A stretch of DNA of 64,000 bases from an uncultured candidate division Zixibacteria bacterium (GCA_963713865.1 OY970208.1:2336001-2400000), one strand, 5' to 3'; positions 10,164-52,679 are shown, counted from the stretch's first letter. Program-made: numbers and translations. Notes: generated by a model not told the origin, from the sequence alone.

Positions 10164-10176
10164 AAAAGGAGGTATT

Positions 10177-11901: not shown

Positions 11902-11938
11902 AAAAAGAACCCCGCCCCGATTTTAATCAGGGCGGGGG
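11902..11938 (-). terminator. Intrinsic terminator after dockerin protein A
   Basis: CCCCGCCCTGAT-TAAA-ATCGGGGCGGGG followed by TTCTTTTT on the minus strand. Confidence 0.7.
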
Positions 11939-11976
11939 ACAATCTCCTTCTCAATCACAAGATTCATCCTGAGGGT

Positions 11977-31276: not shown

Positions 31277-32132
31277 CTATCTCAACGCTTCCACTCCGCT
31301 TGCTATTTCCACCATCTCCTTGGTTATGGCAGATTGACGGGCTTTGTTGCGGAGCAAGGTTAAATTTTCGATCATCTCCTCTGCGTTTCTGGTAGCGGCT
31401 CCCATAGCGATCATCCGCGAGCCCTGCTCTGAGGCGAAAGCTTCGGCCAACGCCATCTGAACCCGGGTCAGGCAATATCGAGGAAGAAGGTCTCCAAAGA
31501 GCTTCTCCGGAGATGGCTCAAAGATATATTCCAAATAACCCTCATTTTTTTCTTCCGGCCTTTCGATATTAAGAAATTTATCTAATGCTATTCGATAAGA
31601 GGTTGTGGAGATGAATCTGGTGTACAGCAGATATATCTCGTCCACTTCTCTGGATTTGAAAAGCTCCTCGAGGTCAGAAGTTATCTTTTTTACTCTGTTA
31701 AGCTCCGATTTACCTCCTATGTCCAGATACTGCAATCTAATTTCCCAGGGTCTTTTTCGATAATAATAAACCCCCTTTTTCCCGATAAGAATCAGTTTGA
31801 TTTTTTCTTGAGGTTCTGTGTTTAAAAATTCTTCTGCTTTTCTGAAAATATTAACATTATAGGAACCACAAAGACCCCTGTCTGATGTAATGATGACCAA
31901 GCCCTTATGCCTGACCTCTCTTTTTTCAAATAGAGGATGAGTTAAAGCAGTTGAAGCTGAAGACAGATTCTCAAGGATGGTCTGCATTTTTGAAGCATAG
32001 GGTTTGGAGGAGACCAATCTGGTTCTGGGCTTTCCTGAGTTTAGCCGCAGAGATTAACTCCATTGCCCTGGTAAGCTGCATGGTGCTGGAAACTGTTCTT
32101 ATCCTGCGTCTTAATATTTTTAAAGATTCCAT
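31277..32132 (-). CDS. atpG: F1Fo ATP synthase subunit gamma (apparent +1 frameshift near 32021-32024)
   Basis: MESLKILRRRIRTVSSTMQLTRAMELISAAKLRKAQ continues in another frame as LVSSKPY..TSDRGLCG..RQSAITKE; removing 1 nt gives 284 aa. Confidence 0.92.
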
Positions 32133-32213
32133 ATTCTAAATCGAATAACTACTTTAGTAAACCTGAAGGTTTACATTCCAGAGATTTGGGTTCGATAAAT
32201 CAAACCCCTACGT

Positions 32214-33729: not shown

Positions 33730-33762
33730 AATTATTACCTCGCTATTCGCTTTTCGATTTTT

Positions 33763-36984: not shown

Positions 36985-38437
36985 ATGAAAAAGTCCAACA
37001 GATATCTGCATTACTTTCTTATAACCATAGCTGGCATCTTAATCTTTTTACCAGGTATTTTCTCCTTTTTCAATTCGGATGATTTTGTTCTGGCTAAAAA
37101 ATTCGCAAAAAATAAGTTTTAATACGATATCATCTTTGGCATCAAATTATGACTCGGTTATTAAGTTCAGACCTTTAGTCCATTTTTTCTTCCAGCTTAT
37201 TTATTCTTTCTCCGCATTAAACCCTTTAGGTTATCATCTGACTGGATTAATTTTCCATTTGTTAAACGCCCTTATTTTCTATACTCTGCTCTTGAAATTT
37301 ACCTCCCGTAATCAACTCTCGTTTATCTCTGCATTGATCTTCGTTTCCGGTTTTGCACAGGAAGAAGCTCTTTTCTGGATCTCTGCCATTTCCAGTCTAT
37401 TGGTTACTTTCTTTTACCTCTGTTCAGTCTGGTCTTTCTGGACCTATCTGGAGAATAAAAAGATTGGATTTTATATTATTTCCTTTTTATTATCTGTTTT
37501 AGCTTTACTTTCTAAAGAGGATGGGGTTACTATTTTCTTGGCATTGTTTTTATTGGTTTACTTCAAAACTTCAGGGGAGGTTTTATTTAAACTCAAGCAA
37601 GGTTTCAAGTATGCTTTGCCCTTTTTAGGATTGTCCATTTTATACTCCATGACAAGATATTTGACTGTGCCGGATAATATCATGTCTAAGTTTTTAACTT
37701 TTAATCCGGTGGTAATAATTAAGAACATCTGTTATTTTGGAATAAGCTTACTTTTTCCGGTAAGATTTTTCTTTGACTTAGTTGGCTTTCAGGTGCATTC
37801 CTATTTGAATAATATAATTCAATTAAGATTAGATAATTTCTGGGTGATATCGATTTTGATAATAATAAGTTTGATTTTCCTTTTATCATTTCTCTATTTT
37901 AGGAGAAAGAGAATTTCTGGCTTTAAGTTGGGATTGGTTTTGTTTGTTCTGGGGATTCTGCCTTATCTTCCGGTTAACGGAAATGGGCAACGCTTTCTTT
38001 ATTTTCCTTCTTTGGGATTCTCCATGATCTTGGCGAGTTTGCTCCTTTATATTTCAAACAAAGTAAAGAAGATCAAAGTGTTAAATCTGGTAGTCGTGCT
38101 TATCATGATTTTTAATGGGGCAATTCTTTATGAGCGAAGTAGCTGGTGGAGAAAAGCTGGAAGAGTCTGCCAGGAGATTGTTGATAAGGCGGGAAAGATA
38201 GTTTCGTCTGCTCCTGAGAGTTCAAAAATTTATTTTGCTAACCTCCCCCAAAGGATAAATGGAGCCTATACCTTTCATACTGGTTTTGAAGAAGCAATTC
38301 ATCTTTTTTATCCTGAACATAAAGTAAAGGTTTATGATCTGGGACAGTTTAAAGAAGATGAACTTGAAGTTGTGAGGAATAGTTTTAAGGATAACATTTA
38401 TATTTTTAAGAAAGGAGAGTTTGAGAGGGTATTTTAA
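36985..38437 (+). CDS. Polytopic GT-C-like (PMT/ArnT/TMTC-type) membrane glycosyltransferase (apparent +1 frameshift at ~37087-37090)
   Basis: Upstream frame MKKSNRYLH..TM..FNSDDF joins WLKNS..FRPL..YHLTGLIFHLLNA..LLSKE..RFLYFPS; 483 aa if repaired. Confidence 0.65.
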
Positions 38438-38444
38438 TTATAGA

Positions 38445-38840
38445 GCCAGGTTTAAAACCTGCCCTTACAAGTTTTTCCCCCGTCTGGTGGCGACTGGGTC
38501 AGAGTGCCATCCCCAAACTTGTTAGGGATGTTATAAATTTAAACACCCTCAAACGAGTTTGAGGGTACCACCCACCTCATTCCATTTCCCGTCTCCTGTC
38601 AGGAGAGTTAGGGGTATAGTCATATTACTTCGGGTTCGATAAATCGAACCACTACAGAAATCGTAACGCACGACCTTCGTGTCGTGCGTCCTTTATTCGT
38701 CCTATAGAAATGTCGGACATTGCAAGTTTTGCCAAAAACAAAAATGGAAGGCTAAAAGCCTTCTGCTATAAAAAAACATCTGGGATAAACCCAGACGCTA
38801 CTGAATCTCCGTGGTCACGATACACGAATCACGGCCACGT
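38445..38840. repeat. Dense patchwork of different REP-like hairpins between convergent genes
   Basis: ACCCTCAAACGAGTTTGAGGGT, GGTTCGATAAATCGAACC, ACGCACGAC..GTCGTGCGT, GAAGGCTAAAAGCCTTC, TCTGGGATAAACCCAGACGCTAC, CGTGGTCACG..CGGCCACG. Confidence 0.75.
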
Positions 38841-38851
38841 TTTTTTAATCT

Positions 38852-40546
38852 TTAAACCGTAGTCTCAGCAATAACCTCCTCTACAGTAGTAATCCCTTTT
38901 TTTATTTTTTCTATAGCCGCCATCCTCAGAGTCAACATACCATTAGTGACAGCATATTCCTTTATATCCTGACTGGATTTACCCTCCATAATCATCTTCT
39001 CAATCTCCGGGGTTATGGGCATAATTTCAAACAGACCGGTTCTGCCGGAAAAACCGGTATTATTACATTCCTGACAACCCTTACCCTGATAAACCTTGAA
39101 ATCTTTAATCTCGTTCTCCGGAACACCTAATCTCAAAAGTGCTTCCGGCTTCACTTTAACTTCATCTTTGCAAAAATTGCAGATCTTTCTTACCATTCTC
39201 TGAGCCATTATTAATCTTACGGCTGAAGCCACCAGATAACCGGGCACTCCTATGTCTACCAGCCGGTTGATGGTACTCGCCGCATCATTCGTATGCACCG
39301 TAGAGAAAACTAAATGTCCGGTTAAAGCGGCTCGAATAGCTATATCGGCTGTTTCCCCGTCTCTTATCTCTCCCACCATGATAACATCCGGGTCCTGGCG
39401 TAGAAAGGACCTTAAACAGGTGGCAAAGGTAAAACCTATCTCGCTCTTTACCTGCACTTGATTTATCCCATCAAAATTGAACTCAACTGGATCTTCAGCC
39501 GTCATTATATTTATATCCGGTTCATTAATCTGTTTTAAAGCCGAATACAGAGTGGTGGTTTTACCGCTTCCCGTGGGACCGGTTACTAAAACCATTCCGT
39601 AAGGTAACTTGATCGCTTCTGCAAATTGTTTTAATCCCTTTTCCGGAAATCCAAGTTTAGTCAGATCCACCATCAAGCTTCTCGGATCCAGAATACGCAT
39701 AACCACTTTCTCTCCGAAGATAGTTGGCAGAACTGATACTCGAATATCCACTGCCCGGTCTCCTATCTTGACTTTGATCCTTCCATCCTGTGGCAGTCTT
39801 CTCTCTGAAATATCCAAATCTGCCATAATTTTTACCCTGGAGACAATAGCCGGTCGATATTTGAAAGGTAAAGGTGACATCTCCTGCAGGTTACCGTCGA
39901 GTCGGTATCTTACCCTGATCCTTTTTTCGTAGCTCTCAATATGAATATCTGAAGCACCTCTTTTGATGGCATCAGAGATAATTCCATCTACTAATTTAAC
40001 TAATGGTTTATCCTGAACTGCTGAGCGCAGGTCCTGTTCAGTGGGAACCTCTTCGGAAGCTTCGATGACCTCCAGATCCTCATCTTTCATCCCTTTGAGG
40101 ATCTCGTCTATACCGGAACTTTCCTGATAGTAGGCATCGATAGCTTTCTGGATAGCTTTTTCCGGGCTGATGACTGGCTGAATAGAACACCCGGTGATGA
40201 ATTTTACTGCATCTAATACATAGATATTATTGGGATCCGAGATGGCTACAATTAAGGTGCGGCCTAATTTGCTTACCGCAATGACGTTGAATTTCCTGGC
40301 TATATCTGCAGGTATAAGCTTGACCACCTCAGGGTTAAGCTCTATATCCGAAAGCCTTAAAGCTCCTATGTTAAGCTGTCTCCCGATAAATTCAGAGAGC
40401 TCCTCTTCATCCTGGATAGCTCCCATCTTTAACAGGACCTGCCCTAACTTGGCTTCTCCTTTTTTCTGCAGCTCTAAAGCTTTTTCGAGCTGTTCCTGAC
40501 TGATCTTACCAGCCTTGACCAGCATTTCCCCTAATTCCACAGACAT
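38852..40546 (-). CDS. pilB: Type IV pilus assembly ATPase PilB (GspE/PulE family)
   Basis: MshEN-like N-terminus, ASDIHIE, RLPQDG, GPTGSGKTTT, LRQDPD, GHLVFSTVHTN, CxxC..CxxC zinc site. Confidence 0.93.
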   Translation of the reverse strand: MSVELGEMLVKAGKISQEQLEKALELQKKGEAKLGQVLLKMGAIQDEEELSEFIGRQLNIGALRLSDIELNPEVVKLIPADIARKFNVIAVSKLGRTLIVAISDPNNIYVLDAVKFITGCSIQPVISPEKAIQKAIDAYYQESSGIDEILKGMKDEDLEVIEASEEVPTEQDLRSAVQDKPLVKLVDGIISDAIKRGASDIHIESYEKRIRVRYRLDGNLQEMSPLPFKYRPAIVSRVKIMADLDISERRLPQDGRIKVKIGDRAVDIRVSVLPTIFGEKVVMRILDPRSLMVDLTKLGFPEKGLKQFAEAIKLPYGMVLVTGPTGSGKTTTLYSALKQINEPDINIMTAEDPVEFNFDGINQVQVKSEIGFTFATCLRSFLRQDPDVIMVGEIRDGETADIAIRAALTGHLVFSTVHTNDAASTINRLVDIGVPGYLVASAVRLIMAQRMVRKICNFCKDEVKVKPEALLRLGVPENEIKDFKVYQGKGCQECNNTGFSGRTGLFEIMPITPEIEKMIMEGKSSQDIKEYAVTNGMLTLRMAAIEKIKKGITTVEEVIAETTV

Positions 40547-40629
40547 ACTTCCTGCCCTATCCTACGGATCAGTTTCTCTGAAAGATGGTGAAGCTAAGGC
40601 TAACCCGAATCAGAATCTTAAGGTCAGTT

Positions 40630-41118
40630 CTAATCCTTAAAAATATCATTAAGTCTGTCTTCAGCTGACGCGGTGAACCCGGAATCGATTGCCGGCTCGC
40701 TTTTCTTTTTCTCTTTATGAGCCTGCTCTAAAATCGAAGCCAATTCTTCACCGCACTCCTTAGCATAAAGTCTGACCATACCTATGGTAGTGCGATCATC
40801 GAATATAACCACCAGTATCGATCTTTCACCTACCAAAGTGATATGAATATGGTCCCTTTTTCCCTGATGGAAAAGAACTGAAAATTCTGGCTCACCAACC
40901 AGTCGAGCGATTTCCCGCGTAGAGGCAAAACTTCCTGCCAGAAGAGCTGCCAGAGCAGTTGTATCCAGGGAATGGGTAAAACCCTGACGGGTTATCAGGT
41001 GTCCATCTTTATCCACCAAGAGGGCACACTTAGCTTCAGCCCCTTTGATCAGCTTGATCAAAGTCCGATCGATTTTCTCGATCTCCTCCTCATAGATAAT
41101 CAAGCTATCCTCCTGCAA
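40630..41118 (-). CDS. mglB: MglB roadblock protein (GAP-type)
   Basis: TTG start with SD GGAGG; LIIYEEE..ALLVDKDGHLI..LAALLAGSFAST..LFHQG..IGMVRL, Myxococcus MglB-like. Confidence 0.88.
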   Translation of the reverse strand: MQEDSLIIYEEEIEKIDRTLIKLIKGAEAKCALLVDKDGHLITRQGFTHSLDTTALAALLAGSFASTREIARLVGEPEFSVLFHQGKRDHIHITLVGERSILVVIFDDRTTIGMVRLYAKECGEELASILEQAHKEKKKSEPAIDSGFTASAEDRLNDIFKD

Positions 41119-41121
41119 TTT

Positions 41122-42258
41122 TTACCTCCTATCTACTATTTTTCTTATCCATCTCCACCAGAATTTGCCCCAGATGGATTTAGTTCTCTTTTGTTTAAGC
41201 ATAGGAGAAGTGATAATTTTCTCCTGTAAAAGAGGTTTTACTTTTTCAGTTTTAGCTACTTCAGCCGGTTGTTCCAGCACTTCTTTCTCTAAAATCTTCT
41301 CAGTTTCAAGGGCTTCCTTTTCAATTTCGAATTGACCTGGGATTAAAGTTTTCTCTTCCTTTTCACCAACTTCTTCAACTTTCTCTATTCTTTCCTCCTC
41401 GATTTCTATGGTTTTTTCTACTTTCTCTATTCTCTCAACTTTCTCTTCTTTCTCCATTTTCTTTATTGGCTTCTCTTCTTCCATCTTCTTAACTGGCTCA
41501 TACTTCTCTACTGGTTTTTTTTCTAAAACTCCTCTATCCGGAATAATTCTGGAAACTGGCTCTATTTCTATTCTTTCTCTTTCAACTGGAGATGGAACAA
41601 AAAGTTTTGGCTGAGCAACAACTGTAACTTGTTCCTTTTTTACGGATACAAGTTCGGGTTTTTCCTCGGTCTCCGGTTTTCCTCTGGCTTTCTCCAGCAC
41701 TAAATTGCTGATCCCTTTAAGGGTATCGAAAACCCCTTCACCGGTTGACGCCACAGCTTCATAATAAGGTAGTCCTCTGGGGTTCAAAGCCTTCTCCAGC
41801 TCTTCAATAGTTGACACCTCATCTAAGTCTCTTTTATTATATTGCATGATCATCGGAAGCTCTTCTAAGACGTAACCGTACTCTTCCAGGTTCTCCACCA
41901 GATTATTCATGCTTTCGATGTTCTCCTCTAATTTAGCTACTTGCGAATCAGCCACAAAAACTAAACCATCAACTCCTCTTAATACTAACTTACGAGTAGC
42001 ATTATAATAAACCTGACCCGGTACCGTATATAGCTGAAATTTGGTCGAAAACCCCTGCACCGGCCCAATATCCAAAGGTAGAAAATCAAAATAAAGCGTT
42101 CGGTCCGCATCCGTAGCCAAAGAGATCAACTCCCCTTTGGTCTTGGGAGGGGCTTTTTTATGTATATAAATGAGGTTGGTGGTTTTACCACTCAACCCCG
42201 GTCCATAATAAACTATCTTACAGCAGATTTCTCTGAAAGCATAGTTGATCGAGACCAT
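41122..42258 (-). CDS. mglA: MglA small GTPase with ~180-aa charged C-terminal extension
   Basis: KIVYYGPGLSGKTTNL, RTLYFDF, YTVPGQ, QYNKRD; E/K/P-rich tail ending SIWGKFWWRWIRKIVDRR. Confidence 0.92.
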   Translation of the reverse strand: MVSINYAFREICCKIVYYGPGLSGKTTNLIYIHKKAPPKTKGELISLATDADRTLYFDFLPLDIGPVQGFSTKFQLYTVPGQVYYNATRKLVLRGVDGLVFVADSQVAKLEENIESMNNLVENLEEYGYVLEELPMIMQYNKRDLDEVSTIEELEKALNPRGLPYYEAVASTGEGVFDTLKGISNLVLEKARGKPETEEKPELVSVKKEQVTVVAQPKLFVPSPVERERIEIEPVSRIIPDRGVLEKKPVEKYEPVKKMEEEKPIKKMEKEEKVERIEKVEKTIEIEEERIEKVEEVGEKEEKTLIPGQFEIEKEALETEKILEKEVLEQPAEVAKTEKVKPLLQEKIITSPMLKQKRTKSIWGKFWWRWIRKIVDRR

Positions 42259-42271
42259 GTTGCTCTATTCT

Positions 42272-42616
42272 TTAGAAATTCCGCTCTTTAATCTTGGTTG
42301 CAGTATTTTTGATTTCCAGCCGTATCAACCCGATATTCACATTGGGTTCAGTTGTAACCACTAATATCCCGAAGCCAACATCTGTGAAAAAAAGTTTCCC
42401 CTGTTCGCCTTCAATCGTCATCTGTCTCAGGGCAGTAGTTTTTAATCTCTCTAAGGATTTCTGGACCGTGCTGACGATTGATGCCGCTAGAGCTCCCACT
42501 GTCTCATCCTGAAACCGGGTGTCTAAATCTGCGGCAATAATAATGCCATCATTTCCCACCAGCATACTTCCGGTGATACCGCTAGTCTTATTAAGCTCCT
42601 CTAAGATCTGATACAT
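42272..42616 (-). CDS. Stand-alone roadblock/LC7 protein
   Basis: LEELNKTSGITGSMLVGNDGIIIA..MTIEGEQG..NIGLIRLEI; ATG 42616 with SD GGAGG. Confidence 0.85.
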   Translation of the reverse strand: MYQILEELNKTSGITGSMLVGNDGIIIAADLDTRFQDETVGALAASIVSTVQKSLERLKTTALRQMTIEGEQGKLFFTDVGFGILVVTTEPNVNIGLIRLEIKNTATKIKERNF

Positions 42617-43493
42617 TTTTTCCCTCCTCCAATCCCGGGAGTTTTCCATATCTTTCTTTTATGAATTTTTTAAGCATCTCAGCTGCTCTTATTATTCGTA
42701 TACTAAGCAATTCATCTGTATTCCGGCTGGCTATAGTCACCAGGGTGAAATCTAAAACCCGGTTCAAATTTATCCACCTTCCGGATGTGAAAAACTGAAT
42801 CCTATCCACCCTGGATTCTCCTATCTTCTTTAAGATGTCAGAGTTCATCTCCTCCAGGCTTAAAGCTAAAGGAGCAATCTTTTCCCCATCCAACCCTTCT
42901 TCACAATCCTGCCCCACCAACAGACCTTCGGAATCTACTAAAAATGCTCCTTCCACTCCGGAATAATCTTTAAGGTAACTCAACGCATTTTCTAAAGTGC
43001 TCTCCTTTATCTCAGCTTTTGGATGAAGTGGAATTACCTCCTCTTTCACCTCGGGTAGAGGTCTTGATCTTTCAAGTTTTTTTTCTCTTTCCAATTTGTA
43101 GATCTTATCCCCGAATGAGAATTTGAAAATAAAAGGTACTAAAACTATCTGAAACAGAATCGAGGGAAGGTAAGCTAACATTCCCAGCTTCAGAGAAAGA
43201 AGTAAATTATAAGAGAACATAAAAGAAATAAGCACCCCAAAGACAAAACCTATGGTAATCCTTAGGAGGAGACTGAAAAAAGAATATACTAAGATTAGAG
43301 AAAAGGAGAGAAAAGGGAAAAGGAAAAAGTAAACCAGGATATACCATATGAACTCAAACGGAAAAAGAAAAAACGGGTTGATCCCAGTCTCTAAATTCTT
43401 TGGAAAAAAGAGAAGCGGGAAAACCGCCAGAAAAGCAGAGAGTATAAAAAGTTGTCGATATTCTTTAAAACTATCTTTATCAGGTTTTTCCAT
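42591..43493 (-). CDS. Membrane protein (about 4 TM) fused to a C-terminal roadblock domain
   Basis: Hydrophobic N-half; LSYLKDYSGVEGAFLVDSEGLLV roadblock signature. Confidence 0.75.
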   Translation of the reverse strand: MEKPDKDSFKEYRQLFILSAFLAVFPLLFFPKNLETGINPFFLFPFEFIWYILVYFFLFPFLSFSLILVYSFFSLLLRITIGFVFGVLISFMFSYNLLLSLKLGMLAYLPSILFQIVLVPFIFKFSFGDKIYKLEREKKLERSRPLPEVKEEVIPLHPKAEIKESTLENALSYLKDYSGVEGAFLVDSEGLLVGQDCEEGLDGEKIAPLALSLEEMNSDILKKIGESRVDRIQFFTSGRWINLNRVLDFTLVTIASRNTDELLSIRIIRAAEMLKKFIKERYGKLPGLEEGKNVSDLRGA

Positions 43494-43512
43494 CTTTTTG
43501 TCCTTAAATAAA

Positions 43513-44361
43513 TTACTCTTCAGCCAGTCGCCCTAAGATCTGGTCAACCCGTATCTTTAAATACCCTAAATTAGCTTCACTCCTGCATACCAATAACAAA
43601 ATATTTCTTTTTAGTTTAATTGTCCAGAAGCTGAACTCTTCTGCTTCTATCAAAAACTGCTCCAGGTTTCCGAAATTGAGCCTGGGCAAACCTGCTTTTA
43701 TCTCTCTGAAAAGCTCGGCGATAACTGCACCTGAGTTTTCCTGGTTTAAATCGATCTTTAATCTATTTTCTCTAACTAACCCATCCTCACCTACAACCAG
43801 TGCTGCCATAAGATTTGGCAGAGAGGTTAATGAAAAAAGGACTTCTGAAAAAGGTAGATTTTTTTCGACTTTTAGCGGCTCATCTTCTCCTCGAGCCGGT
43901 ACTTCAGGAGGTGTGAATACCACGCCTCTTCTTTTTTCCTCCTTCAAACCTTTCTGAACTTCTTCCAGAAGCGATTTGAGGATTGGGTTCTTTTTGTCAG
44001 TCGATAGAAGTTTTTCAACCATACTTTTCGCCTCTCTAAACTCACCTTTTTTGACCATTATCTGAACAAGAAGCTGTTCTGTAACCCGCGTCCTGCCATC
44101 TGCCTTTATGGCTAAAAGAAGTTCTTTTTCCGCCTCCGAATACATCTCCCGGTCAAAGTTGACCTTAGCCATAATCAGATGGCCAGCTCCATAATCTGGA
44201 TGGTTTTTTAATCCACCCCGGCAAATTTCAAACGACTTGTCCAGCTCTCCTTTTTTCCGGTAAGCTTCTGCCAGAGCGGCAAATATTTGAGAGTCCGGAT
44301 GTTCGGAAAGGATTTTTCGGCACTTCTCTATCCTTTCTTCCAATTCAAGCAATTCTGCCAT
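43513..44361 (-). CDS. TPR-repeat protein fused to a C-terminal roadblock domain
   Basis: FAALAEAYRKKGELDKSFEICRGGLKNHPDY TPR; LPNLMAALVVGEDGLV..ANLGYLKI roadblock. Confidence 0.78.
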   Translation of the reverse strand: MAELLELEERIEKCRKILSEHPDSQIFAALAEAYRKKGELDKSFEICRGGLKNHPDYGAGHLIMAKVNFDREMYSEAEKELLLAIKADGRTRVTEQLLVQIMVKKGEFREAKSMVEKLLSTDKKNPILKSLLEEVQKGLKEEKRRGVVFTPPEVPARGEDEPLKVEKNLPFSEVLFSLTSLPNLMAALVVGEDGLVRENRLKIDLNQENSGAVIAELFREIKAGLPRLNFGNLEQFLIEAEEFSFWTIKLKRNILLLVCRSEANLGYLKIRVDQILGRLAEE

Positions 44362-44396
44362 AATCTTTTCTCTCTAAAAAAGATATACCATAAAAT

Positions 44397-44424
44397 TTAT
44401 CGACAGTTTAAAGAGATAACTTTA
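44397..44424 (-). promoter_or_regulatory. Sigma-28-like promoter of the roadblock-mglA-mglB-pilB genes
   Basis: TAAA-GTTATCTCTTTAAACT-GTCGATAA (16-nt spacer), 35 nt before the ATG. Confidence 0.55.
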
Positions 44425-44484
44425 CTGTAAAAGAATACACTCTACCGGTCCGGGAAACGGATCTGTAGGATATCGTGACAGTTT

Positions 44485-44871
44485 TCAGCCGAGTTTCTTC
44501 CTTATCCGGATGAATCCAAAAACCAGTAGGATAAAGCCAAAAAACTGTAAAAGCAAAACAAAAGCTGAAATGCTATTTATCGCCCCTAAACTGCTCAGGA
44601 ATTCCAGGAAAATGGAGACAAATAAAATCGATAAGGCTATGCTTGATAAAACCCAGGCGGAGGAGAGTTCCCCGCCTTTAAGCAGTGAATGGATTTTGAG
44701 AGCAAAAAATATTCCGCCGCCTAACACTGTTAGGATAAAAATCGATAACAAAGCTCCTGCAAAGGAAACCTCCCCTTTACTCTGCTCCTGAGCCAGACAA
44801 TCTCTTCCGGAGAAAAAAAACAAGACTAAGATCATTAATCCCAGATGAAATTTTGATTTAAGTCTGAGCAA
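44485..44871 (-). CDS. Small membrane protein (signal peptide plus 3 TM)
   Basis: Hydrophobicity pattern; 9 nt downstream of the DUF4388 gene. Confidence 0.65.
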   Translation of the reverse strand: MLRLKSKFHLGLMILVLFFFSGRDCLAQEQSKGEVSFAGALLSIFILTVLGGGIFFALKIHSLLKGGELSSAWVLSSIALSILFVSIFLEFLSSLGAINSISAFVLLLQFFGFILLVFGFIRIRKKLG

Positions 44872-44880
44872 CCATCCCTC

Positions 44881-46086
44881 CTAAGCTATCTCCTCGCCTT
44901 TTAAAGCAAGTTTGAGAATTCTGTACAGATCATCCTCTATATCAAATTTTTTAACGATCTCCATCTCCTTCAAAAAATAATGAGCTGTGCTTTTTTTAAT
45001 CTCGCCAATCATCTTCCGGGTGATATCTTCTCCTACGAAATGATAGGCTAAGGTCAGATAACTTAAAAGCAAACTCTGCAATCCCTGAAAGATCTGATGA
45101 AATCTAATCTCTTCTGGAATCTTGTACAGAGATATATTGCGATAGGCTTCTGTTAATTCCCGGGATTGAATCAAGGTTCCGTTTTTCATTAAATGATTTA
45201 AAACCGGAAATATGGATTTTTTTTGATTTAGAGCTTTATCCCAGAGTTTTTCCTGAACCTTACCTAACTTCTGTACCAGAATTTTGTCCACAACTGAATA
45301 GCTGGTGGAGAATACCTGAAGCAATATCTCGATTATAACTGCTTCTTCTCTTTTTTTATCTTTTTTGGTTTGGGTTTTTTCGCCGGGGATAACCAATCCC
45401 TGATCCAGTAGCCTCAGCAGCGCCCTGGATGCATCGTATTCACCTAACGGGCTTTCCGCTAAAATATCCGGATAAGTTTTATCCCCGTCTACCATAAGCA
45501 GGGTTTTGAATTCACCCAGGCTAAGATTTATGGCATTGGACCCGATTTTAGGATTAGGATTTCCTTTCAGAATCACATTGTCTTTAGGAAGACTTTTCTG
45601 CATCTCCAACATCTCGTCGATTTTCCTGGTTCCTTCCATGATGACATTAATCGTATTCATATTGGTGGTTATCTGTCCCTCGACCGGCTCTTTGCCATCC
45701 TGAAAAGTAAAATCACCTTCCTTCCAGCTAAAAAGATTATAGACGATCTCCTCGATCTGCAGTTTCAAACAGGCCACCAGTTCCTCTTTTTTCAATAAAC
45801 CCATCTCTACAATGGTTACGCCAATCCTCTTGCCCGTAGTCCGGTGAAGTTTCAAGACCTCGTTTAACTCTTGCTGTGAGATCTTACCTAACCTTAAAAG
45901 AAGATTCCCCAGGAGCTCCTCTTCAGCATTAGAGGAAGTAGCATAAACTATATTCCCTTCCTGGAAATAAATTTCTTTTCTCTGAGTCTGGCGCATCAGG
46001 GTGAGCATACCGCTCTTTTTGCTGGAGCTGATCAACTGCAACAGATCAGGAAAAGAGACTGTATTTAGATTCCCCGTTAAACTCAT
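44881..46086 (-). CDS. DUF4388 (PATAN-like) domain protein
   Basis: MSLTGNLNTVSFPDLLQLIS..KSGML..IYFQEGNIVYA..LFSWKEGDFTF..IMEGTRKIDE. Confidence 0.85.
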   Translation of the reverse strand: MSLTGNLNTVSFPDLLQLISSSKKSGMLTLMRQTQRKEIYFQEGNIVYATSSNAEEELLGNLLLRLGKISQQELNEVLKLHRTTGKRIGVTIVEMGLLKKEELVACLKLQIEEIVYNLFSWKEGDFTFQDGKEPVEGQITTNMNTINVIMEGTRKIDEMLEMQKSLPKDNVILKGNPNPKIGSNAINLSLGEFKTLLMVDGDKTYPDILAESPLGEYDASRALLRLLDQGLVIPGEKTQTKKDKKREEAVIIEILLQVFSTSYSVVDKILVQKLGKVQEKLWDKALNQKKSIFPVLNHLMKNGTLIQSRELTEAYRNISLYKIPEEIRFHQIFQGLQSLLLSYLTLAYHFVGEDITRKMIGEIKKSTAHYFLKEMEIVKKFDIEDDLYRILKLALKGEEIA

Positions 46087-46087
46087 C

Positions 46088-48383
46088 TTAAAGCTTACCG
46101 ATTAATTTTTCCTTTCTCAAGGCTGTTTTGATTTGATACTTTGCTTCCTTAACCTCAATTACTACCGCGCCCAGCTTTGAAGTCTCGAAAATCTCTTTAA
46201 GGTCAGCCTTGAAAAAATTAAGCCTCTTATAGCCTGATATAATTAGTTTTAAATCATTTTTTTCATTCAGGTAATGACCTATCCAGCCTGAATCTTCTCC
46301 TTGCAGATTAAAACTTACTATATCGGGTTTTAACTTGATGGCTAAGCTTTCCGGGAAAGAACCTTCAGCCAGCAACAGCTTAAATTTCCCGTAACTCAGC
46401 ATCAAAGGGGGATTATGTTCAAATATCCCCCTTTCAAATTTTTTATCGGGATAAATCGAGAAAACCTTAACTCTTGACCAGAACCTGATTTAACTCTTTC
46501 AAATCTCTGATTCCGACTTTAGCTCCATAAAGTTTTTTTAAAACCGGGCTCCCATCCTCAACCACCCAGATCTCTTTCACCTTTATCTCTCTTAGAAGCT
46601 CGGAAACTTTTTCCTCTAACCTTTTTTCATCTGTAAGGATCAGCCCATCCAGCTGGTTAATCCCTTTTTTATAAAGAAAAGGAAGGATAATCCTTTCCAC
46701 CTCCTGAGGGTCTTCTGATAGATTTATCAATACTTTTTTGCTCTGGGGAGCTTCTACCAGAACTGCCTCACCTGAAGCTGAAAGATAGGTGATTCTCAGT
46801 TCGGATGACCGGTTGTTAAGGGAATTAAAAATCAAAAGAAAACCTACCCAGAAAAAACCCATAAAAGACAATATTAACAAGAATGCTTTTAGACTTTTTT
46901 GAAAAATAGCTGCAAAAAGAGAAAGATAAAAAGTTAAAATGAAAAGATAGGAGGGTGAAGAGACTTTCAAATCTGCATAAGGAAGGGAAGAGAAAAAAGA
47001 TAGAATTCTCAGTATAAGCTCCAAACAAAGCCAGTTGAAAGAAGTAAATACAATAGATAGCTTCAAGCTTAAAAGGCTGATCAGAAGTGAAATCGCCCCT
47101 ACCATAACTACTAAACCGGTGAGCGGTACGATAAAAAGATTAGCCAAAAGGGAATAAATAGAGAATTTATTAAAATAATAAGCTGTAACCGGATAGGTGA
47201 AAAGCTGAGCTGAGAGTGAAACAAAAAAGGGAAGCGCTATATAATATTTGAAGAACCGGTTTTTGAGTTTGGAGAGGAAAAGCTTCTCCAATTTTGGAAC
47301 CCAGAGGATCAAACCCAGGGTAGCCGCAAAAGATAATTGAAAACCGACATCGAAAAGAGAAGATGGATTTGCGAAAAGTATTACCAGGGCCGCCAAAGCC
47401 CAGATATTGATCAAATCCCTTTCCCGCTCGACCAGAAGTGAAATAAGGAAAATTGAGGCCATAATCGAGGCTCTAACCACAGAGGGCTGGTTCCCGGTAA
47501 CAAAAGAGAATATTATGATCAGGAGAAAAACTAAAAGTAATGAGACCTGGTAAGGTATCCTCAAAAGTTTGAAAGCTCCAAAAAAGACAAGAACAACTAT
47601 AGCCACGTTTGAGCCGGATATGGCTAAAAGATGAAGGGTGCCGGTATCGGTGAAAAGCTTATAGACCTCCTGTGGAATACCTCTTCTCTCCCCTAAGACA
47701 AAACCGCTCAAAATTGCTTGGTGAGAGCCGGTCAGGCTGCTCTTAAAGAAATTAAGAATATAATATTTCACTGGAAGAATTATCTTGGAGATAAAAAAAT
47801 TACCTTCCCCCCTCTCTAATATCTTTACTTCAGAATCACTCCGTAAATTCAGGCAACCAAAGATTTCCCTGGTGCTAAGATATTTTCTATAATCAAAAGC
47901 CCCCGGATTTTTGGGAGGGAAAGGAGAGTAAAGATAACCCTTGAGCTGAATCAAATCACCGTAATTGAAAAGGCTGGTCGGCTGTTTGATTTTCAAAAGG
48001 ATTTTACCGGTGGTTTTAATCTTCTTATGATTAAAAGACAATTCCCGGGTATCCATCTCTAAAAATGTTTTATCCTCTCTTATATCCGGGTCTTTACAGA
48101 TGATGCCGATCAGCTCAACCTTGCCATATTGTTTTGTGAAATTAGAGATGTGATTTATGGGTAAGTCCCTGGTTTTTAACTCGTATCTCCAGAATCCGGC
48201 TACGATCAAAAGAAGAGTCAGGAGAATAAACCAGGTCTTCTTTTCCTGACGAAAAAAGAACAGTAGAAAAAGTAAACACAAAATAAGGAAGAGTAAAATC
48301 AGTGTAGACAGGTTCAGGTAATCCCCCAAAAGAATCCCGATAATATAAGCCAGCAGTGCCAGAAGAGCTGGTCTGCGTTTCAA
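46088..48383 (-). CDS. comEC: ComEC/Rec2 DNA-uptake channel (apparent +1 frameshift at ~46478-46484; degenerate MBL domain)
   Basis: NPGAFDY, GTLHLLAISGSNV, SVVRASIM, GFQLSFAAT; the downstream frame VKVFSIYP..PLMLSYGKFKLL matches the MBL-domain tail; 764 aa if repaired. Confidence 0.88.
46443..46469 (-). promoter_or_regulatory. Sigma-28-like promoter inside the comEC 3' region, facing the DUF4388 gene
   Basis: TAAG-GTTTTCTCGATTTAT-CCCGATAA (15-nt spacer). Confidence 0.4.
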
Positions 48384-49963
48384 GTTTTTCCCCTCTTGAA
48401 TCCTAAAATTCCCAATACTCGCTCGACTTCCTTTATCTTCAAAGCTTTGGCAAAGAAAAGATAGCTAAAAAAAGAAACCATAACCATAACGCTTACCAGG
48501 ACCAGTTTCTGGATTAAACTCCCTTTATCTAAATCCACCCGGTAGAGAAAAAGAAAACTCTGCAATAAAATACCCATTAAAAAAGAGGCTAAAAGAATTT
48601 TCAGGAAACTGTCTCTCAAATCTTTTTTATCAAAAGGTCCAACCCTCTTATCCAGTTTATTAAAAAGGATGGACATATTCAGGACAGCCGAAATAGAAGT
48701 AGCTAAAGCCAGTCCACGAAAACTTAAAGAATGCATAAGGACCAGATTCAAGCTGATGTTAGCCCCAACTGCAATAGCACTGCTAATCACCGGCACTTTA
48801 GCTTCACCTAAGGCATAGAAAACCGGTGCTAAAACCCGGACCGAGGCATAGGCGAAAAGCCCGAGGGCATAGAGGATCAGTGCCTGAGAGGTAGCTTGCG
48901 TGTCTGTGTAAATAAATTTCCCATGTTGATATAAAAGGGAGATGATCGGCTTTGCGCCAACTGCTAAAAAGATGGTTGAGGGTAAAGTCAAGAAAAAGAT
49001 AAGTTTCAGAGAAGAGCCGCAGGTGGAGACAAGTTCTTCAAAATTTTTCTGTGCCGCCTTTGCAGCTAAAATCGGAAAGGTAACCGTAGCAACTGCAACC
49101 CCGAAAACCCCTAAGGGGAAATTCATTAACCTGAAACTGTAATTCAAATAGGAAACGCTCCCCTGGGGTAAAAGGGAAGCTATTAAAGTATTGACGAAGA
49201 TATTTACCTGAGTGGAAGCTAATCCTAATATAGCTGGAGTCATCAGCCAGAGGATTTTTTTTACTCCCGGGTCTTTCCAGTCCAGGATCGGTTTGTATCT
49301 ATACCCTGATCTGAACAATACCGGCACCTGGATGAATAGTTGTCCAGCCCCGCCTAAAAGCACTCCCACAGCCATCCCGATGATCGGTGTTTTCAAAAAT
49401 GGGGAGATTAGAAATCCGGCTAAGATCATCCCTAAATTCAGCATTGTCGGGGCTAAAGCAGGTGCTCCAAACTTTCCTAAGGAGTTTAAAATCCCCATAC
49501 AAACCGCGGCTAAAGAGACCAGAAGCAGAAACGGGAACATTATCCGCGTCAAAAGGGTGGTCAGCTCTATCTTCCCTTCGATCTTATTAAACCCCGGAGC
49601 TATTAAATTGACAATCGCAGGGGAAAATATTATCCCTAAAATTATTATGATAGATAAAACGATTACCAGCAGGTTAATCACTAAATTAGTCAAACGAAAA
49701 GCATCTTCTTTCCCCTGAAGAGTTAGCTTTTCAGTGAAAACCGGTATAAAAGCGCTGGAGAGCGCCCCCTCAGCTAAAAGGTCTCTTAATAGATTGGGGA
49801 TGCGAAAAGCCGCCACAAAGGCATCTGTGGCTAAGCCTGCCCCGAAAAGATAGGCGAAAACCTGCTCCCTTATAAGCCCGAAAACTCTGGACAAAAAAGT
49901 AGCAGAGCTGACTACTCCTGTAGACCTGACTATCTTATCTTTTGTTTCCTGAGTCTGCACCAT
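48380..49963 (-). CDS. murJ: Lipid II flippase MurJ
   Basis: SRVFGLIRE, AFRIPNLLRDLLAEGA, RLMNFPLGVFG; stop overlaps the comEC TTG. Confidence 0.95.
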   Translation of the reverse strand: MVQTQETKDKIVRSTGVVSSATFLSRVFGLIREQVFAYLFGAGLATDAFVAAFRIPNLLRDLLAEGALSSAFIPVFTEKLTLQGKEDAFRLTNLVINLLVIVLSIIIILGIIFSPAIVNLIAPGFNKIEGKIELTTLLTRIMFPFLLLVSLAAVCMGILNSLGKFGAPALAPTMLNLGMILAGFLISPFLKTPIIGMAVGVLLGGAGQLFIQVPVLFRSGYRYKPILDWKDPGVKKILWLMTPAILGLASTQVNIFVNTLIASLLPQGSVSYLNYSFRLMNFPLGVFGVAVATVTFPILAAKAAQKNFEELVSTCGSSLKLIFFLTLPSTIFLAVGAKPIISLLYQHGKFIYTDTQATSQALILYALGLFAYASVRVLAPVFYALGEAKVPVISSAIAVGANISLNLVLMHSLSFRGLALATSISAVLNMSILFNKLDKRVGPFDKKDLRDSFLKILLASFLMGILLQSFLFLYRVDLDKGSLIQKLVLVSVMVMVSFFSYLFFAKALKIKEVERVLGILGFKRGKT

Positions 49964-50059
49964 TCTTAATTAATTTTGCAGGGGTAATTCATGATTTACC
50001 CCTGCTTCCTGTCTGAATATAATCTATCTTCAAAACATATAAAACTAAATCTTTTTCAA

Positions 50060-50087
50060 TTGACAAACAAAGATTTTTCTTTATATT
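50060..50087 (+). promoter_or_regulatory. Sigma-70-like promoter of rpsT
   Basis: TTGACA-16nt-TATATT. Confidence 0.5.
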
Positions 50088-50115
50088 TACCCTTCAAAAT
50101 TGCAAAGGAGGAAAT

Positions 50116-50403
50116 TTGCCAGCGCGCAGAGTTACAGTTCATAAAGACGTCATCAAGAGGTTAAGAACCAGTTTAAAAGCCAGGGAAAGTAACCGGGAGA
50201 TCAAGTCACACCTAAAAAATCTGGTAAAGAAGGCGGAGACAAAACCCGATACTGAAAATCTCAAAAACGCATTCTCCCTTCTGGACAAAGCTTCCCGGAA
50301 AAAAGTCATCCCTAAAAACACTGCTTCCCGGATAAAATCCAGAATTTCCAGGCTCTTGAACAAAGCTACCAAACCAGGTGCCGGATCAAAAGCAGAAGCT
50401 TAG
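50116..50403 (+). CDS. rpsT: 30S ribosomal protein S20
   Basis: SD AAGGAGG plus TTG; KRLRTS..N..KS..K, LDKASRKKVIPKNTASRIKSR; divergent from murJ. Confidence 0.9.
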   Translation: MPARRVTVHKDVIKRLRTSLKARESNREIKSHLKNLVKKAETKPDTENLKNAFSLLDKASRKKVIPKNTASRIKSRISRLLNKATKPGAGSKAEA

Positions 50404-51559
50404 GATTTGATTTAAGAATAGTCATCAAAATCTCTAAGGAAGTAAGGCTGTTTAACTCTTTCTTTTCCAGATAGAGTTTTAAAAAGTCTATTACCTCCTC
50501 GAAATCCTCATCTTTCATTTTAAGGTATATCTTCCTGCAGAAAGAATAAAACCTCAACTCTCTCCCTTTTATTTTCATGAACTCCTCTTCATATTTCTTT
50601 AAATAAGCAAGAGGGGCTTCTTTATTCTTCAGATATTCTGAAGTAACCTGCCCGGCGATCCTCCCGGAGAGAAGTGCATTAGCAATCCCGGCACCGGAAA
50701 TAGAGTCAACCACTCTGGCTGCATCTCCTACAAAGAGAAGATTATCCTTAACCAGTTGACTTTTGCGGCTGTAAGCCGGTATCCCTCCAGTCATCCATTC
50801 TTCTACTAAAAAATTTTTGAACCTCTTCATTACAAAAAAATCTAATAGCTCCTTAGCCTTTTCCACCCCGGGCGGATTTCCAGAAACCGGAGTTATGGCC
50901 AAGCCCACATTAGCTGTATTTCTCCCCTTGGGAAAAACCCAGGCATATCCCCCCGGTGCTAACTTTGTGCCTAAATGAAATTCAGTACAATCTTCCTCTA
51001 TACTGTCGCTTTTTAGAAGATATTGATAAGCAGAATCCACCTCATTCAATTTCAGGCTGTTATCTAAACCTGCCCATCTGCCCACTAATGACTCAATCCC
51101 ATCCGCCGCGATAATTACCTTTGCTTGATATTCTAACTCTTTACCATCCTCTTTTACCTTTATACCGCAGATCTTCCCACGGTTATGGATTAAGCCATCT
51201 GCTTGAGTATTGAGTTTCAACCCCGCACCTGAGGATTGGGCTTTTAGAGCTAATTCTTTATCGAACAATTTACGATTAAGGACTAATCCCGCATTCGGGT
51301 AGGAGAATTTCAATTCTTTGCCGGAGGGACTTTTCAAAAGGATTTTATGAATGGGTGAACTTATCCAGGCTGGTTTGACTTCCCCGCAAATTGAAAGCCC
51401 TTTCGGGCTGATAGCTTCGGCACAGCATAAAGGTTGACCTGCCTCTTTATGTTTTTCTATTAAAAGTACATTATGTTGATTTTCAGCTAAGACTAAAGCC
51501 GCCATCGAGCCAGCCGGACCTGCCCCGACTATTATGCAGTCATAACTATCTTTCATCAT
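50366..51559 (-). CDS. Geranylgeranyl reductase-family FAD oxidoreductase (DGGR-like)
   Basis: IIVGAGPAGS, CAEAI, IAADG, APGGYAWVFPKG, VGDAARVVDSISGAGI; start at 51559 or 51556. Confidence 0.88.
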   Translation of the reverse strand: MMKDSYDCIIVGAGPAGSMAALVLAENQHNVLLIEKHKEAGQPLCCAEAISPKGLSICGEVKPAWISSPIHKILLKSPSGKELKFSYPNAGLVLNRKLFDKELALKAQSSGAGLKLNTQADGLIHNRGKICGIKVKEDGKELEYQAKVIIAADGIESLVGRWAGLDNSLKLNEVDSAYQYLLKSDSIEEDCTEFHLGTKLAPGGYAWVFPKGRNTANVGLAITPVSGNPPGVEKAKELLDFFVMKRFKNFLVEEWMTGGIPAYSRKSQLVKDNLLFVGDAARVVDSISGAGIANALLSGRIAGQVTSEYLKNKEAPLAYLKKYEEEFMKIKGRELRFYSFCRKIYLKMKDEDFEEVIDFLKLYLEKKELNSLTSLEILMTILKSNPKLLLLIRHLVW

Positions 51560-51731
51560 CCATCTCCAGCGCACCTGAGGGGCAGAAGATGACGCAGTCA
51601 TTGCATAGAACGCAGAGCTCTTCTTTTATCTTCAAACCCTGACTATCAAGCTCCAGTGCTTCAAAAGCGCAGACCGCTACACATCCACCACATTCCCCGC
51701 ACAGCTCTGGCCTTAATTTTAATTTGTCCAT
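51546..51731 (-). CDS. 2x[4Fe-4S] ferredoxin
   Basis: CGECGGCVAVC and CVLCNDCVIFCP; overlaps the reductase start. Confidence 0.9.
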   Translation of the reverse strand: MDKLKLRPELCGECGGCVAVCAFEALELDSQGLKIKEELCVLCNDCVIFCPSGALEMDDER

Positions 51732-52101: not shown

Positions 52102-52671
52102 GTGCCCAAAAAAAGAGTAATTCAGATGAAAGAAGAACCCCATCTCCGGATGCCTGATAATACTGATAAAGTTGATACAACTCGGCGTAGGTTTTTAAAG
52201 GTAGCCATTGGAATCTTACCCCTTCTGAGTGGCTTTGTATTGGGAATTCCGTTCATCCGGGCTCTGGTAAGTTCAAGGGCTAAAACAGCAAAACAGAACT
52301 GGTCCAGAGTTTTAGAAGTCAACTCTTTACCTGACGGTAAACCGGTAAGATTAAACTTTTCTACACAGACCGAAGATGCCTACCTGTATCAAACCGCAGT
52401 GTCCTCCGTTTGGGTTATTAGAAATTTCCCCACAGAGGTAACTGTATATTCGCCAGTCTGTCCCCACCTCGGTTGTTATTATAATTGGAATCCTCAGAAC
52501 GAACACTTCGAATGTCCCTGCCACAACAGCGTGTTCTCGATTAGCGGAAAGGTCCTGGCTGGACCTTCACCCCGTCCGCTCGATACTTTGTCAAGCAGGA
52601 TAGAAAACGGGACCTTATTCGTCAAATGGGAACAGTTTAAAGCCGGTATCCCTGAAAAAGTCCCGGTCTAG
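52102..52671 (+). CDS. Rieske iron-sulfur subunit of a Rieske/cytochrome b complex
   Basis: Tat motif TRRRFLK, CPHLGC, CPCHNSVF, GPSPRPLD; true start may be 52126 or 52150. Confidence 0.92.
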   Translation: MPKKRVIQMKEEPHLRMPDNTDKVDTTRRRFLKVAIGILPLLSGFVLGIPFIRALVSSRAKTAKQNWSRVLEVNSLPDGKPVRLNFSTQTEDAYLYQTAVSSVWVIRNFPTEVTVYSPVCPHLGCYYNWNPQNEHFECPCHNSVFSISGKVLAGPSPRPLDTLSSRIENGTLFVKWEQFKAGIPEKVPV

Positions 52672-52679
52672 GAGGCTCA

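Follow-up and report, generated by a model that had tools for sequence, protein, structure and literature searches.

Among the closest described relatives of the gene cluster reported here is the polarity module of Myxococcus xanthus, which consists of the Ras-like GTPase MglA, its roadblock partner MglB, and MglC, RomR-RomX, RomY and SgmX. Its output is the extension of the type IVa pilus (T4aP) driven by PilB. In M. xanthus, MglA and the TPR protein SgmX stimulate type IV pili (PMC7519303), and an extra roadblock paralogue (MglC) as well as TPR and PATAN proteins are found around MglA and the T4aP (PMC11580455). PATAN genes also occasionally adjoin mglA of Group 1 (PMC4316618). The MglA-MglB pair, the extra roadblock, the TPR effector and the occasional PATAN neighbor are hence already known. 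A 2014 survey of 1,611 genomes (Wuichet and Sogaard-Andersen, PMC4316618), from which GTPases longer than 240 amino acids (aa) were excluded, recorded at most two MglB homologues per MglA. Here, we describe a locus in which a single MglA is accompanied by four roadblock proteins, a PATAN protein and PilB. It lies in a stretch of DNA of 64,000 nucleotides (nt), referred to as the window, from an uncultured candidate division Zixibacteria bacterium (GCA_963713865.1 OY970208.1:2336001-2400000).

With moderate confidence, we take this locus for an operon found throughout the lineage that encodes an expanded and membrane-associated MglA polarity module, by which the T4aP extension motor PilB would be controlled. 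As in Myxococcus, a Group 1 MglA with an arginine finger and an MglB with a C-terminal helix are present, and the same output is proposed. On the contrary, three extra roadblock proteins are found here instead of one: one is an integral-membrane protein and one is fused to TPRs. The stand-alone roadblock protein is not detectably MglC-like, and no RomR or RomX was seen. Furthermore, MglA is extended by a long linker that ends in a cationic amphipathic tail, mglB comes after mglA, and all of these genes stand directly beside pilB(-pilT-pilC) in a single run.

The ten genes from murJ to pilB all lie on the minus strand, from 49963 to 38852, according to the open reading frame (ORF) calls in the window (Table 1). 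Their spacing is tight or overlapping and operon-like: murJ and comEC overlap by 4 nt, 13 nt separate the stand-alone roadblock gene from mglA, mglB starts 3 nt past the mglA stop codon, and the gap between mglB and pilB is 83 nt. The TPR-roadblock gene is preceded by 123 nt. An earlier reading made from the sequence alone had proposed such a co-directional, tightly spaced run, with four roadblock proteins for one GTPase, a membrane component, a neighboring pilus machine and a possibly undescribed arrangement, and these points were borne out. The four roadblock proteins are supported by Pfam, by profile-profile comparison and by one AlphaFold model. The membrane component comprises the roadblock protein with four transmembrane helices (4TM-roadblock), the small membrane protein and probably the tail of MglA, the last being new over that reading. 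No description of the arrangement was found in searches of the open literature.

A scan of one genome per species with the GTPase (G) domain of MglA gave 406 confirmed relatives, from which the 80 best were retrieved. Of these, the 16 highest-ranking loci (70-98% identity) make up the clade of the window; the other 64 represent other lineages. All 16 loci contain the 4TM-roadblock, the stand-alone roadblock, MglA, MglB and PilB. The PATAN protein, the TPR-roadblock and the small membrane ORF are found in all 15 loci that reach them, and comEC in the 14 that reach its site. From the PATAN gene to pilB, the order is kept in 16/16 related loci as far as the contigs extend, and it is maintained while the identity of the accessory proteins drops to 25-40%. 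The cluster, whose synteny across related genomes had been named as one check of the sequence-only reading, is thus conserved throughout a deep clade, and its gene order reflects more than chance, since all 16 loci keep it.

Its sequence identifies the GTPase as a genuine MglA of the Group 1 type, with an arginine finger of its own and the catalytic glutamine. Residues 1-195, the G domain (41674-42258), match the solved MglA of M. xanthus and Thermus, with E-values of 6.8e-79 (6hjh) and 1.2e-72. The P-loop (G19-P-G-L-S-G-K25-T26), N141-K-R-D144, the arginine finger R53 in switch I, and T78-V-P-G-Q82 with the catalytic glutamine are invariant in all 14 aligned orthologues. The hallmarks of Group 1, including the TVPGQ form of the G3 motif, are given in PMC4316618; the arginine finger and catalytic features are also described in PMC10933270.

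With 378 aa instead of ~195, this MglA lies outside the 150-240 aa of the single-domain proteins in the 2014 survey, and MglA is long (314-649 aa) in 16/16 loci of the clade. Among the 64 loci of other lineages, an automatic pass gave 57 complete ORFs, of which 54 measured 189-226 aa and the others 240, 384 and 660 aa. The lengths of L079 (384) and L029 (240) are due to upstream starts, each protein having 202 aa from the MglA start, and six further proteins read by hand have 192-197 aa. The long exceptions are two Fibrobacterota, L045 and L017. In L045 (Chitinivibrionia, 10001-12439), MglA has 656 aa from the MglA start, with an acidic, Pro-rich linker and a basic tail, and mglB lies downstream. 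In L017 (Chitinispirillum, 8812-10738), MglA contains Pro/Gln repeats and runs open off the contig end, and a PATAN gene lies directly upstream. Profiles derived from the present locus did not detect accessory roadblocks in either of them. In the other lineages, mglB is directly upstream of mglA in 61/64 loci; besides the downstream case in L045, it was not detected in L017 and L022.

Past residue 195, the MglA of the window continues as a disordered, Glu/Lys-rich linker (41191-41673). Across the clade, this region is of low complexity, about 100-430 residues long, rich in Glu/Lys or in Pro/Ser/Ala, and the alignment is lost; neither Pfam nor the alignment gave a roadblock match in the C-terminal part. 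The alignment re-forms at the C-terminal end in a stretch of Phe, Trp, Leu and Ile flanked by Lys/Arg. The last 22 residues (41125-41190 in the window) carry a net charge of +4 to +10 and 3-5 aromatic residues in 14/14 orthologues, and their best hydrophobic moment over 11 residues lies at 0.57-0.97, while the linkers average 0.21-0.34. This pattern resembles the C-terminal membrane-targeting amphipathic helices of MinD and FtsA, and the cationic-aromatic tail probably binds the membrane. Long MglA proteins form at least 7999 clusters at E <= 1e-20 among 8000 candidates scored, in a search confined to 207-662 aa that leaves out the ordinary MglA of ~195 aa. Of the 120 best long homologues, 116 have a basic-aromatic tail, taken as a net charge of +3 or more with two or more aromatics, and three of the remaining four still look amphipathic.

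The tail could also be a short linear motif that a partner such as the TPR domain of the TPR-roadblock protein captures, rather than a membrane anchor; it would then act as a tether within the molecule or the complex. TPR domains commonly bind terminal peptides; tail and TPR-roadblock co-occur in 15/15 loci, and the hydrophobic moment is unexceptional in 5/14 orthologues. We consider this very unlikely: the aromatic and leucine residues stand at helical spacing between the Lys/Arg flanks, with the net charge given above, as is typical of lipid-binding MinD and FtsA, and the MglA of L045 combines a long linker and a basic tail with no TPR-roadblock detected by profiles.

MglB is matched by Robl_LC7 (E 1.2e-13) and by 6izw (E 1.1e-42) over profile positions 5-161, which include the region of the C-terminal helix. 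Its mean column identity is 79%, and it reaches 97.7 bits on the Thermus-type model NF052242, below the cut-off of 200 bits. The stand-alone roadblock protein is the most conserved of the accessory proteins (mean column identity 68%) and a clear Robl_LC7 member (E 1.1e-14). Judged by its orthologues, most of which start there, it probably begins at Met12 (42616), which gives its gene an overlap of 26 nt with the 3' end of the gene before it. Among solved structures, a prokaryotic roadblock protein is its closest relative (7yh1, 1e-13), with MglB reaching only 1.5e-4 and LAMTOR2 being a distant sequence match (E about 1.6e-3). Its identification as MglC was dropped, no MglC-named chain being present among its 38 matches in the PDB.

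For the other roadblock proteins, profiles were built from alignments of orthologues from the related loci and compared by hhalign. In the TPR-roadblock protein, TPRs at about residues 1-140 (43942-44361) are joined through a variable linker to a roadblock domain at residues 172-281 (43519-43848). Pfam detects the TPRs only (TPR_19 and TPR_14, E 1e-7), and residues 172-281 match the profile of the stand-alone roadblock (98.4%, E 1.1e-14). The domain itself is not hidden, as automatic annotation at the Joint Genome Institute (JGI) already names such proteins as roadblock-family regulators; their homologues form 509 clusters at E <= 1e-5. In the 4TM-roadblock protein, Robl_LC7 stays below the cut-off (E 0.0033), and residues 169-275 match the stand-alone roadblock profile (95.8%, E 7e-9). 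The AlphaFold2 (AF2) model (predicted local distance difference test, pLDDT, 73.6) has four long helices at residues 6-142, a disordered segment at 144-163 and, at residues 167-282 (42648-42995), a roadblock with the order alpha-beta-beta-alpha-beta-beta-beta-alpha.

The C-termini of the 4TM-roadblock and TPR-roadblock proteins also match each other (97.4%), while the stand-alone roadblock matches MglB weakly (80%, E 1.3e-5). In agreement with this, the stand-alone roadblock scores 56-71 bits on the TPR-roadblock profile and only 17-26 bits, where it scores, on that of MglB. Because both kinds of comparison agree, the three accessory roadblocks are, at the level of sequence profiles, a paralogous group distinct from MglB. 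The sequence-only reading proposed a hetero-roadblock complex, which stays hypothetical: in a complex prediction run without controls, the TPR-fused and free roadblock domains with that of the 4TM protein scored 0.25 against a mark of 0.32, which speaks neither for nor against a contact.

The second membrane protein of the block, of 128 aa, has a signal-peptide-like N-terminus and about three hydrophobic segments (3-4 counted in all by hydropathy), and no match was found in Pfam or NCBIfam. A comparable hydrophobic ORF of 86-135 aa occupies the same position in 15/15 loci covering the site.

The PATAN protein matches PF14332 with an E-value of 1.6e-33, residues 4-158 being aligned to a profile of 122 positions. 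In its AF2 model (pLDDT 84, predicted template modeling score, pTM, 0.51), a beta-sheet core is broken by four helices at residues 55-119 (coordinates 45730-45924). Beyond the core lies a small, winged-helix-like segment of helix and strand, and the C-terminal half is all-helical. Like the cyanobacterial PatA-type PATAN-REC regulators PixE, PixG and LsiR, this protein has at its N-terminus a PATAN/DUF4388 domain that contains a helical insert. Here, however, a helical C-terminal domain of no known family replaces the receiver (no Response_reg match at E <= 0.01), and the partner system is MglA with its roadblocks, not a phosphorelay of the Che type. Look-alike clusters of the C-terminal part in the ESM Atlas come from Acidobacteriota, Thermodesulfobacteriota and Myxococcota, one having PatA_N on 21% of its members, which is a lead only. 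The whole-protein Foldseek search against the PDB gave no match at E <= 0.001. The rows of GATOR1 subunits (9o5a, 7t3a and others; E 0.2-0.5) are too weak to support a longin- or roadblock-like fold of the core.

The helical insert is, by sequence and profile comparison, homologous to the MshEN cyclic di-GMP (c-di-GMP) module that is also found at the N-terminus of PilB. It reaches 43.6 bits on NF053729 (cut-off 38), and its profile matches Thermus PilF (6f8l, three repeats, 5.5e-14) and Vibrio cholerae MshE (5htl, 5.1e-8). Against the N-terminus of the window's own PilB, BLASTP gives an E-value of 4e-9 with 36% identity over 44 residues. The model likewise matches the GSPII-A domain of PilF (9g1w) locally in Foldseek, with a root-mean-square deviation of 1.5 Å over 56 columns. 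The second MshEN half-site and the five-residue spacer conform to the published motif (Wang et al. 2016, PMC5013675). Neither PatA nor DUF4388 is mentioned in the main text of that paper, and no equating of PATAN/DUF4388 with MshEN was found in the literature searched, although it may be stated elsewhere, for example in supplementary tables. In Synechocystis, the PATAN domain of PixE reverses phototaxis and localizes to the membrane, and in the yeast two-hybrid assay this domain alone binds residues 1-366 of PilB1 and the N-terminal domain of PilC (bioRxiv 10.1101/2021.06.11.447907).

The last gene of the run encodes a PilB, with 731 bits on TIGR02538 (cut-off 675.65) and a lower score of 608.8 bits on the GspE model. 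Its N-terminal MshEN module is detected by NF053729 (residues 5-57, E 1e-13) and PF05157 (E 6.5e-19). In 16/16 loci, pilB adjoins mglB, at identities of 64-96% for MglB and 68-98% for PilB, so that the placing of the GTPase next to a pilus machine, anticipated from the sequence alone, is well founded. Six of the deeper loci were tested for the genes that follow (L008, L009, L010, L011, L015 and L016; three further deep loci lie outside the sample), and in all six, pilT and pilC are the two genes after pilB. The ancestral MglA block therefore headed a pilB-pilT-pilC cluster, a closer tie to type IV pili than the window alone reveals. In 5/6 of these loci, a PAS-type sensor kinase gene comes next after pilC.

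Outside the clade, an extra roadblock was found in only two of the 64 other MglA loci, L073 and L079, both from Longimicrobiales (Gemmatimonadota). According to Pfam, the run in L073 (1787-17460) consists of cheA, cheC/X, a large TPR protein, PATAN-TPR, TPR-roadblock, roadblock, an MglB-like roadblock and MglA (202 aa), followed by a DnaA-like AAA protein, PATAN-TPR, cheR, cheD and cheB. TPR-roadblock, roadblock, MglB or MglB-like roadblock, MglA and PATAN proteins (PATAN-TPR in Longimicrobiales) are united in one run in both lineages, the second Longimicrobiales roadblock scoring best on our stand-alone roadblock profile. The Longimicrobiales locus differs in that it sits in a che operon, lacks the transmembrane roadblock and pilB, includes the DnaA-like protein, has an MglA without the tail and places mglB upstream of mglA. 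Judging from its gene content, a smaller relative of the module thus exists elsewhere in the Fibrobacteres-Chlorobi-Bacteroidetes (FCB) group, wired to chemotaxis genes and not to pilB. The AAA protein between mglA and the PATAN gene, also present in L079, has 584 aa and a DnaA-type domain (PF00308, E 2.1e-91). No description of this locus was found in the literature searched.

The chemotaxis neighborhood of this cousin, the sensor kinase (a histidine kinase) after pilC in the deeper loci and the two conserved membrane proteins of no known family in the block could point to a transmembrane signaling unit instead of a device for polarity or pilus positioning, in which the 4TM-roadblock and the small membrane protein pick up a cue from the envelope or from outside and relay it to MglA in a conservon-like or receptor-coupled manner, and PilB is only one of several outputs. 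The actinobacterial conservons (CvnA-D/Mfp) do unite a kinase-like membrane protein, a roadblock and an MglA-type GTPase (PMC4316618). Here, on the contrary, no HATPase CvnA and no DUF742 CvnC is present: Pfam and NCBIfam gave no sensor domain, histidine-kinase ATPase domain or DUF742 in the block proteins. The helices of the 4TM model are linked by short segments, without a folded extracytoplasmic domain, and the G3 motif is that of Group 1, not the GTPGQ of the conservon GTPases (Group 2). A signaling unit of this kind is therefore regarded as unlikely.

The reading of an MglA polarity module acting on PilB can be put together as follows. The tail would tie MglA, by a long flexible leash, to the inner face of the cytoplasmic membrane, and MglB would switch it off. 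The accessory roadblocks may assemble into a membrane-bound platform and so determine the place at which MglA remains in the GTP-bound state; the 4TM protein would anchor this platform, the TPR protein would act as a recruiting arm, and the stand-alone roadblock would be the subunit likeliest to touch MglA or MglB. Such a platform would resemble MglC or RomR-RomX of Myxococcus in its role. At the site of the platform, MglA-GTP and the PATAN protein would recruit or activate PilB, and the MshEN-like modules of the PATAN protein and PilB could provide either a c-di-GMP input or a route of contact between the two.

In eukaryotes, the Ragulator-Rag system likewise presents several membrane-held roadblock-fold subunits as a platform for small GTPases, and the sequence-only reading had drawn this comparison. 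It holds as an analogy only, a resemblance of design and not membership: Rags carry their own C-terminal roadblock and act as heterodimers, while MglA has none, and the Ragulator carries two roadblock heterodimers on a lipidated scaffold, whereas a 4TM protein would be the anchor here. No LAMTOR1-like protein and no lipidated scaffold was found. A nucleotide switch with a short amphipathic lipid-binding helix and an activating partner would also be shared with MinD and with archaeal ArcoA/DipA. The Arco GTPase, a member of the Ras superfamily, oscillates in Haloferax (2026 preprints). In ArcoA, however, the helix lies at the N-terminus, next to the G domain, and the partner is SepF-like, whereas here the helix is C-terminal behind a disordered linker of ~100-430 aa, which argues against nucleotide-gated membrane binding. 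It is conceivable that a leashed, lipid-binding MglA, a Ragulator-like multi-roadblock scaffold and MglB self-organize as a eukaryote-style membrane G-protein platform, by analogy with MinD/MinE or the archaeal Arco/Dip GTPase, and mark the site of PilB and perhaps of DNA uptake, with the MshEN modules reading c-di-GMP; we hold this to be quite unlikely.

Several observations weigh against a membrane-associated module that acts on PilB. No result obtained here includes a protein-protein contact among the proteins of the block. The hydrophobic moment of the tail tops the linker maximum in only 9/14 orthologues. Binding of c-di-GMP by the PATAN protein is doubtful because its first MshEN half-site deviates: the leading Arg is replaced by Leu, Met or Ile, the final Gln is usually missing, with His at the end in most orthologues, and even the relaxed pattern is not matched. 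As the Longimicrobiales module lies in a che operon without pilB, the output of such a module need not be PilB. In the subclade of the window, pilT and pilC are no longer next to pilB, and a scan of 46 of the 56 ORFs in the window revealed no further pilus gene. Finally, the taxon labels of the 16 loci disagree (8 Zixibacteria, 6 Ignavibacteria/Ignavibacteriaceae, 1 Terriglobales and 1 unassigned). The clade is probably Zixibacteria, since all organisms named for the 120 TPR-roadblock homologues that were listed belong to this phylum, which is also the commonest in the three Atlas look-alike clusters shown for the 4TM-roadblock.

A further point on that side is that the synteny upstream of the block runs on to rpsT (11 loci) and to a gene of the geranylgeranyl reductase family (9 loci), without a plausible link. 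The gene order might hence be inherited without a joint function, with murJ, comEC, the MglA block and pilB acting separately and the MglA block regulating gliding, cell-envelope growth, division or another process unrelated to pili. MglA also drives gliding in Myxococcus (PMC4508894), gaps of 123 and 83 nt stand before the TPR-roadblock gene and before pilB, and the promoter scan was uninformative. However, the mglB-pilB junction is kept in 16/16 loci, whereas conservation of the surroundings ends after the pil genes; experiments link PATAN domains to PilB (bioRxiv 10.1101/2021.06.11.447907), and the PATAN protein and PilB share a module of the MshEN type. There is thus little likelihood of gene order without joint function, and the module acting on PilB stays the preferred reading.

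Table 1. Features of the MglA-roadblock-pilB run, with coordinates counted from the first letter of the window.
Feature	Coordinates	Strand	Description	Support
murJ	48380..49963	minus	lipid II flippase; first gene of the co-directional run	PF03023, TIGR01695
comEC	46088..48383	minus	DNA-uptake channel; two ORFs, 46467-48383 and 46088-46405	
PATAN (DUF4388) protein	44881..46086	minus	401 aa	PF14332, NF053729
Small membrane protein	44485..44871	minus	128 aa; without known family	hydropathy
TPR-roadblock	43513..44361	minus	282 aa	TPR_19, TPR_14, hhalign
4TM-roadblock	42591..43493	minus	integral-membrane roadblock, 300 aa	Robl_LC7 (sub-threshold), hhalign, AF2, hydropathy
Stand-alone roadblock	42272..42649	minus	125 aa as longest ORF	Robl_LC7
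MglA	41122..42258	minus	extended MglA, 378 aa	match to 6hjh
MglB	40630..41118	minus	roadblock protein, predicted GTPase-activating protein of MglA, 162 aa	Robl_LC7; match to 6izw
PilB	38852..40546	minus	type IVa pilus extension ATPase, 564 aa	TIGR02538, PF05157
Terminator-like hairpin	38775..38799	minus	10 pairs and a T run, 53 nt past the pilB stop codon	

The hairpin at 38799-38775 is a probable end of the transcription unit; this call is a consensus match alone, and 20 such sites occur in the region where 13.1 are expected. The promoter scan gave 21 sites against 21.5 expected, showing no excess over chance, and the operon starts could not be placed. An Rfam scan of 38000-50600 revealed no riboswitch or other RNA, the sole match being to a sub-threshold snoRNA model. 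In the subclade of the window, pilB is followed by a divergent membrane protein without a known family, with the ATP synthase operon after it. The former (37079-38437, plus strand, convergent to pilB) has 452 aa with many hydrophobic segments and no Pfam or NCBIfam family. It adjoins pilB only in the closest relative, L001 (85%), and is displaced in L010 (35%).

At the other end of the run, murJ is well supported (PF03023, E 1.4e-123; TIGR01695, 445 bits, cut-off 235.55), while comEC, with its DUF4131 and Competence domains, lies just above the cut-off of TIGR00361 (192.8 vs. 190.05 bits). The latter is present in two pieces of 638 and 105 aa, with one extra T near 46483 relative to L002, and is a single ORF of 756-771 aa in 12/13 relatives. 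As atpA and atpG of the window are frame-shifted as well, the split is probably an assembly indel, and a true pseudogene is less likely. In the F-type ATP synthase operon (minus strand), atpA is broken into 32713-33762 and 32214-32897 and atpG into 31277-32053 and 31971-32135. Three frame-shifted genes in 64 kb, two of them essential, suggest indel errors in the assembly.

In the related loci, the gap between comEC and the PATAN gene is often no more than 0-22 nt, and murJ is found upstream of comEC in 12/13 loci reaching the site, the exception being L009, which has comEC without murJ. The coupling to MurJ and ComEC suggested by the sequence-only reading is weak, given that exception and the continuation of the synteny into unrelated housekeeping genes, which means that gene order alone overstates a functional link. 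The presence of comEC may indicate that the pilus also serves in DNA uptake, but this link is weak. The genes for S20 (rpsT) and the flavoprotein of the geranylgeranyl reductase family, at 50116-51601, lie just upstream of murJ and are conserved down to 38% identity. An S20 gene near mglA was also seen in L017 and L053.

Elsewhere in the window, two proteins without an NCBIfam family, of 992 aa (11977-14955, minus strand) and 929 aa (19881-22670, plus strand), end in a C-terminal type I dockerin (E 1.2e-17 and 9.8e-8), which is unusual outside cellulosome-forming Firmicutes. At 52102-54620 (plus strand), the gene for a Rieske protein precedes one for a 646-aa protein in which cytochrome b is fused to c-type cytochrome domains (SoxX-like and CxxCH matches), a fused subunit of a bc-type complex.

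In the literature searched, no report was found of four roadblocks per MglA, of a transmembrane or TPR-fused roadblock, or of a tail-anchored MglA, although supplementary tables may list long MglA proteins. The MglA family of bacteria has been called cytosolic in one of the 2026 preprints on the archaeal Arco GTPase (bioRxiv 10.64898/2026.07.23.738820). Long MglA proteins with a conserved tail are not rare, as the number of clusters indicates, and run counter to this description. Moreover, the homology between the PATAN insert and MshEN suggests a route by which PATAN proteins could meet PilB or sense c-di-GMP. MglA/MglB is the model of a bacterial Ras-like polarity switch, and nearly all work on it concerns Myxococcus, in which MglA is soluble and the regulators lie scattered over the genome. 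Here, the switch, four roadblocks, two membrane proteins, an adaptor of a PilB-binding type and the motor are joined in one conserved run. As the organisms are uncultured, any test must be heterologous, and this compact parts list could be rebuilt in vitro or in a model host.

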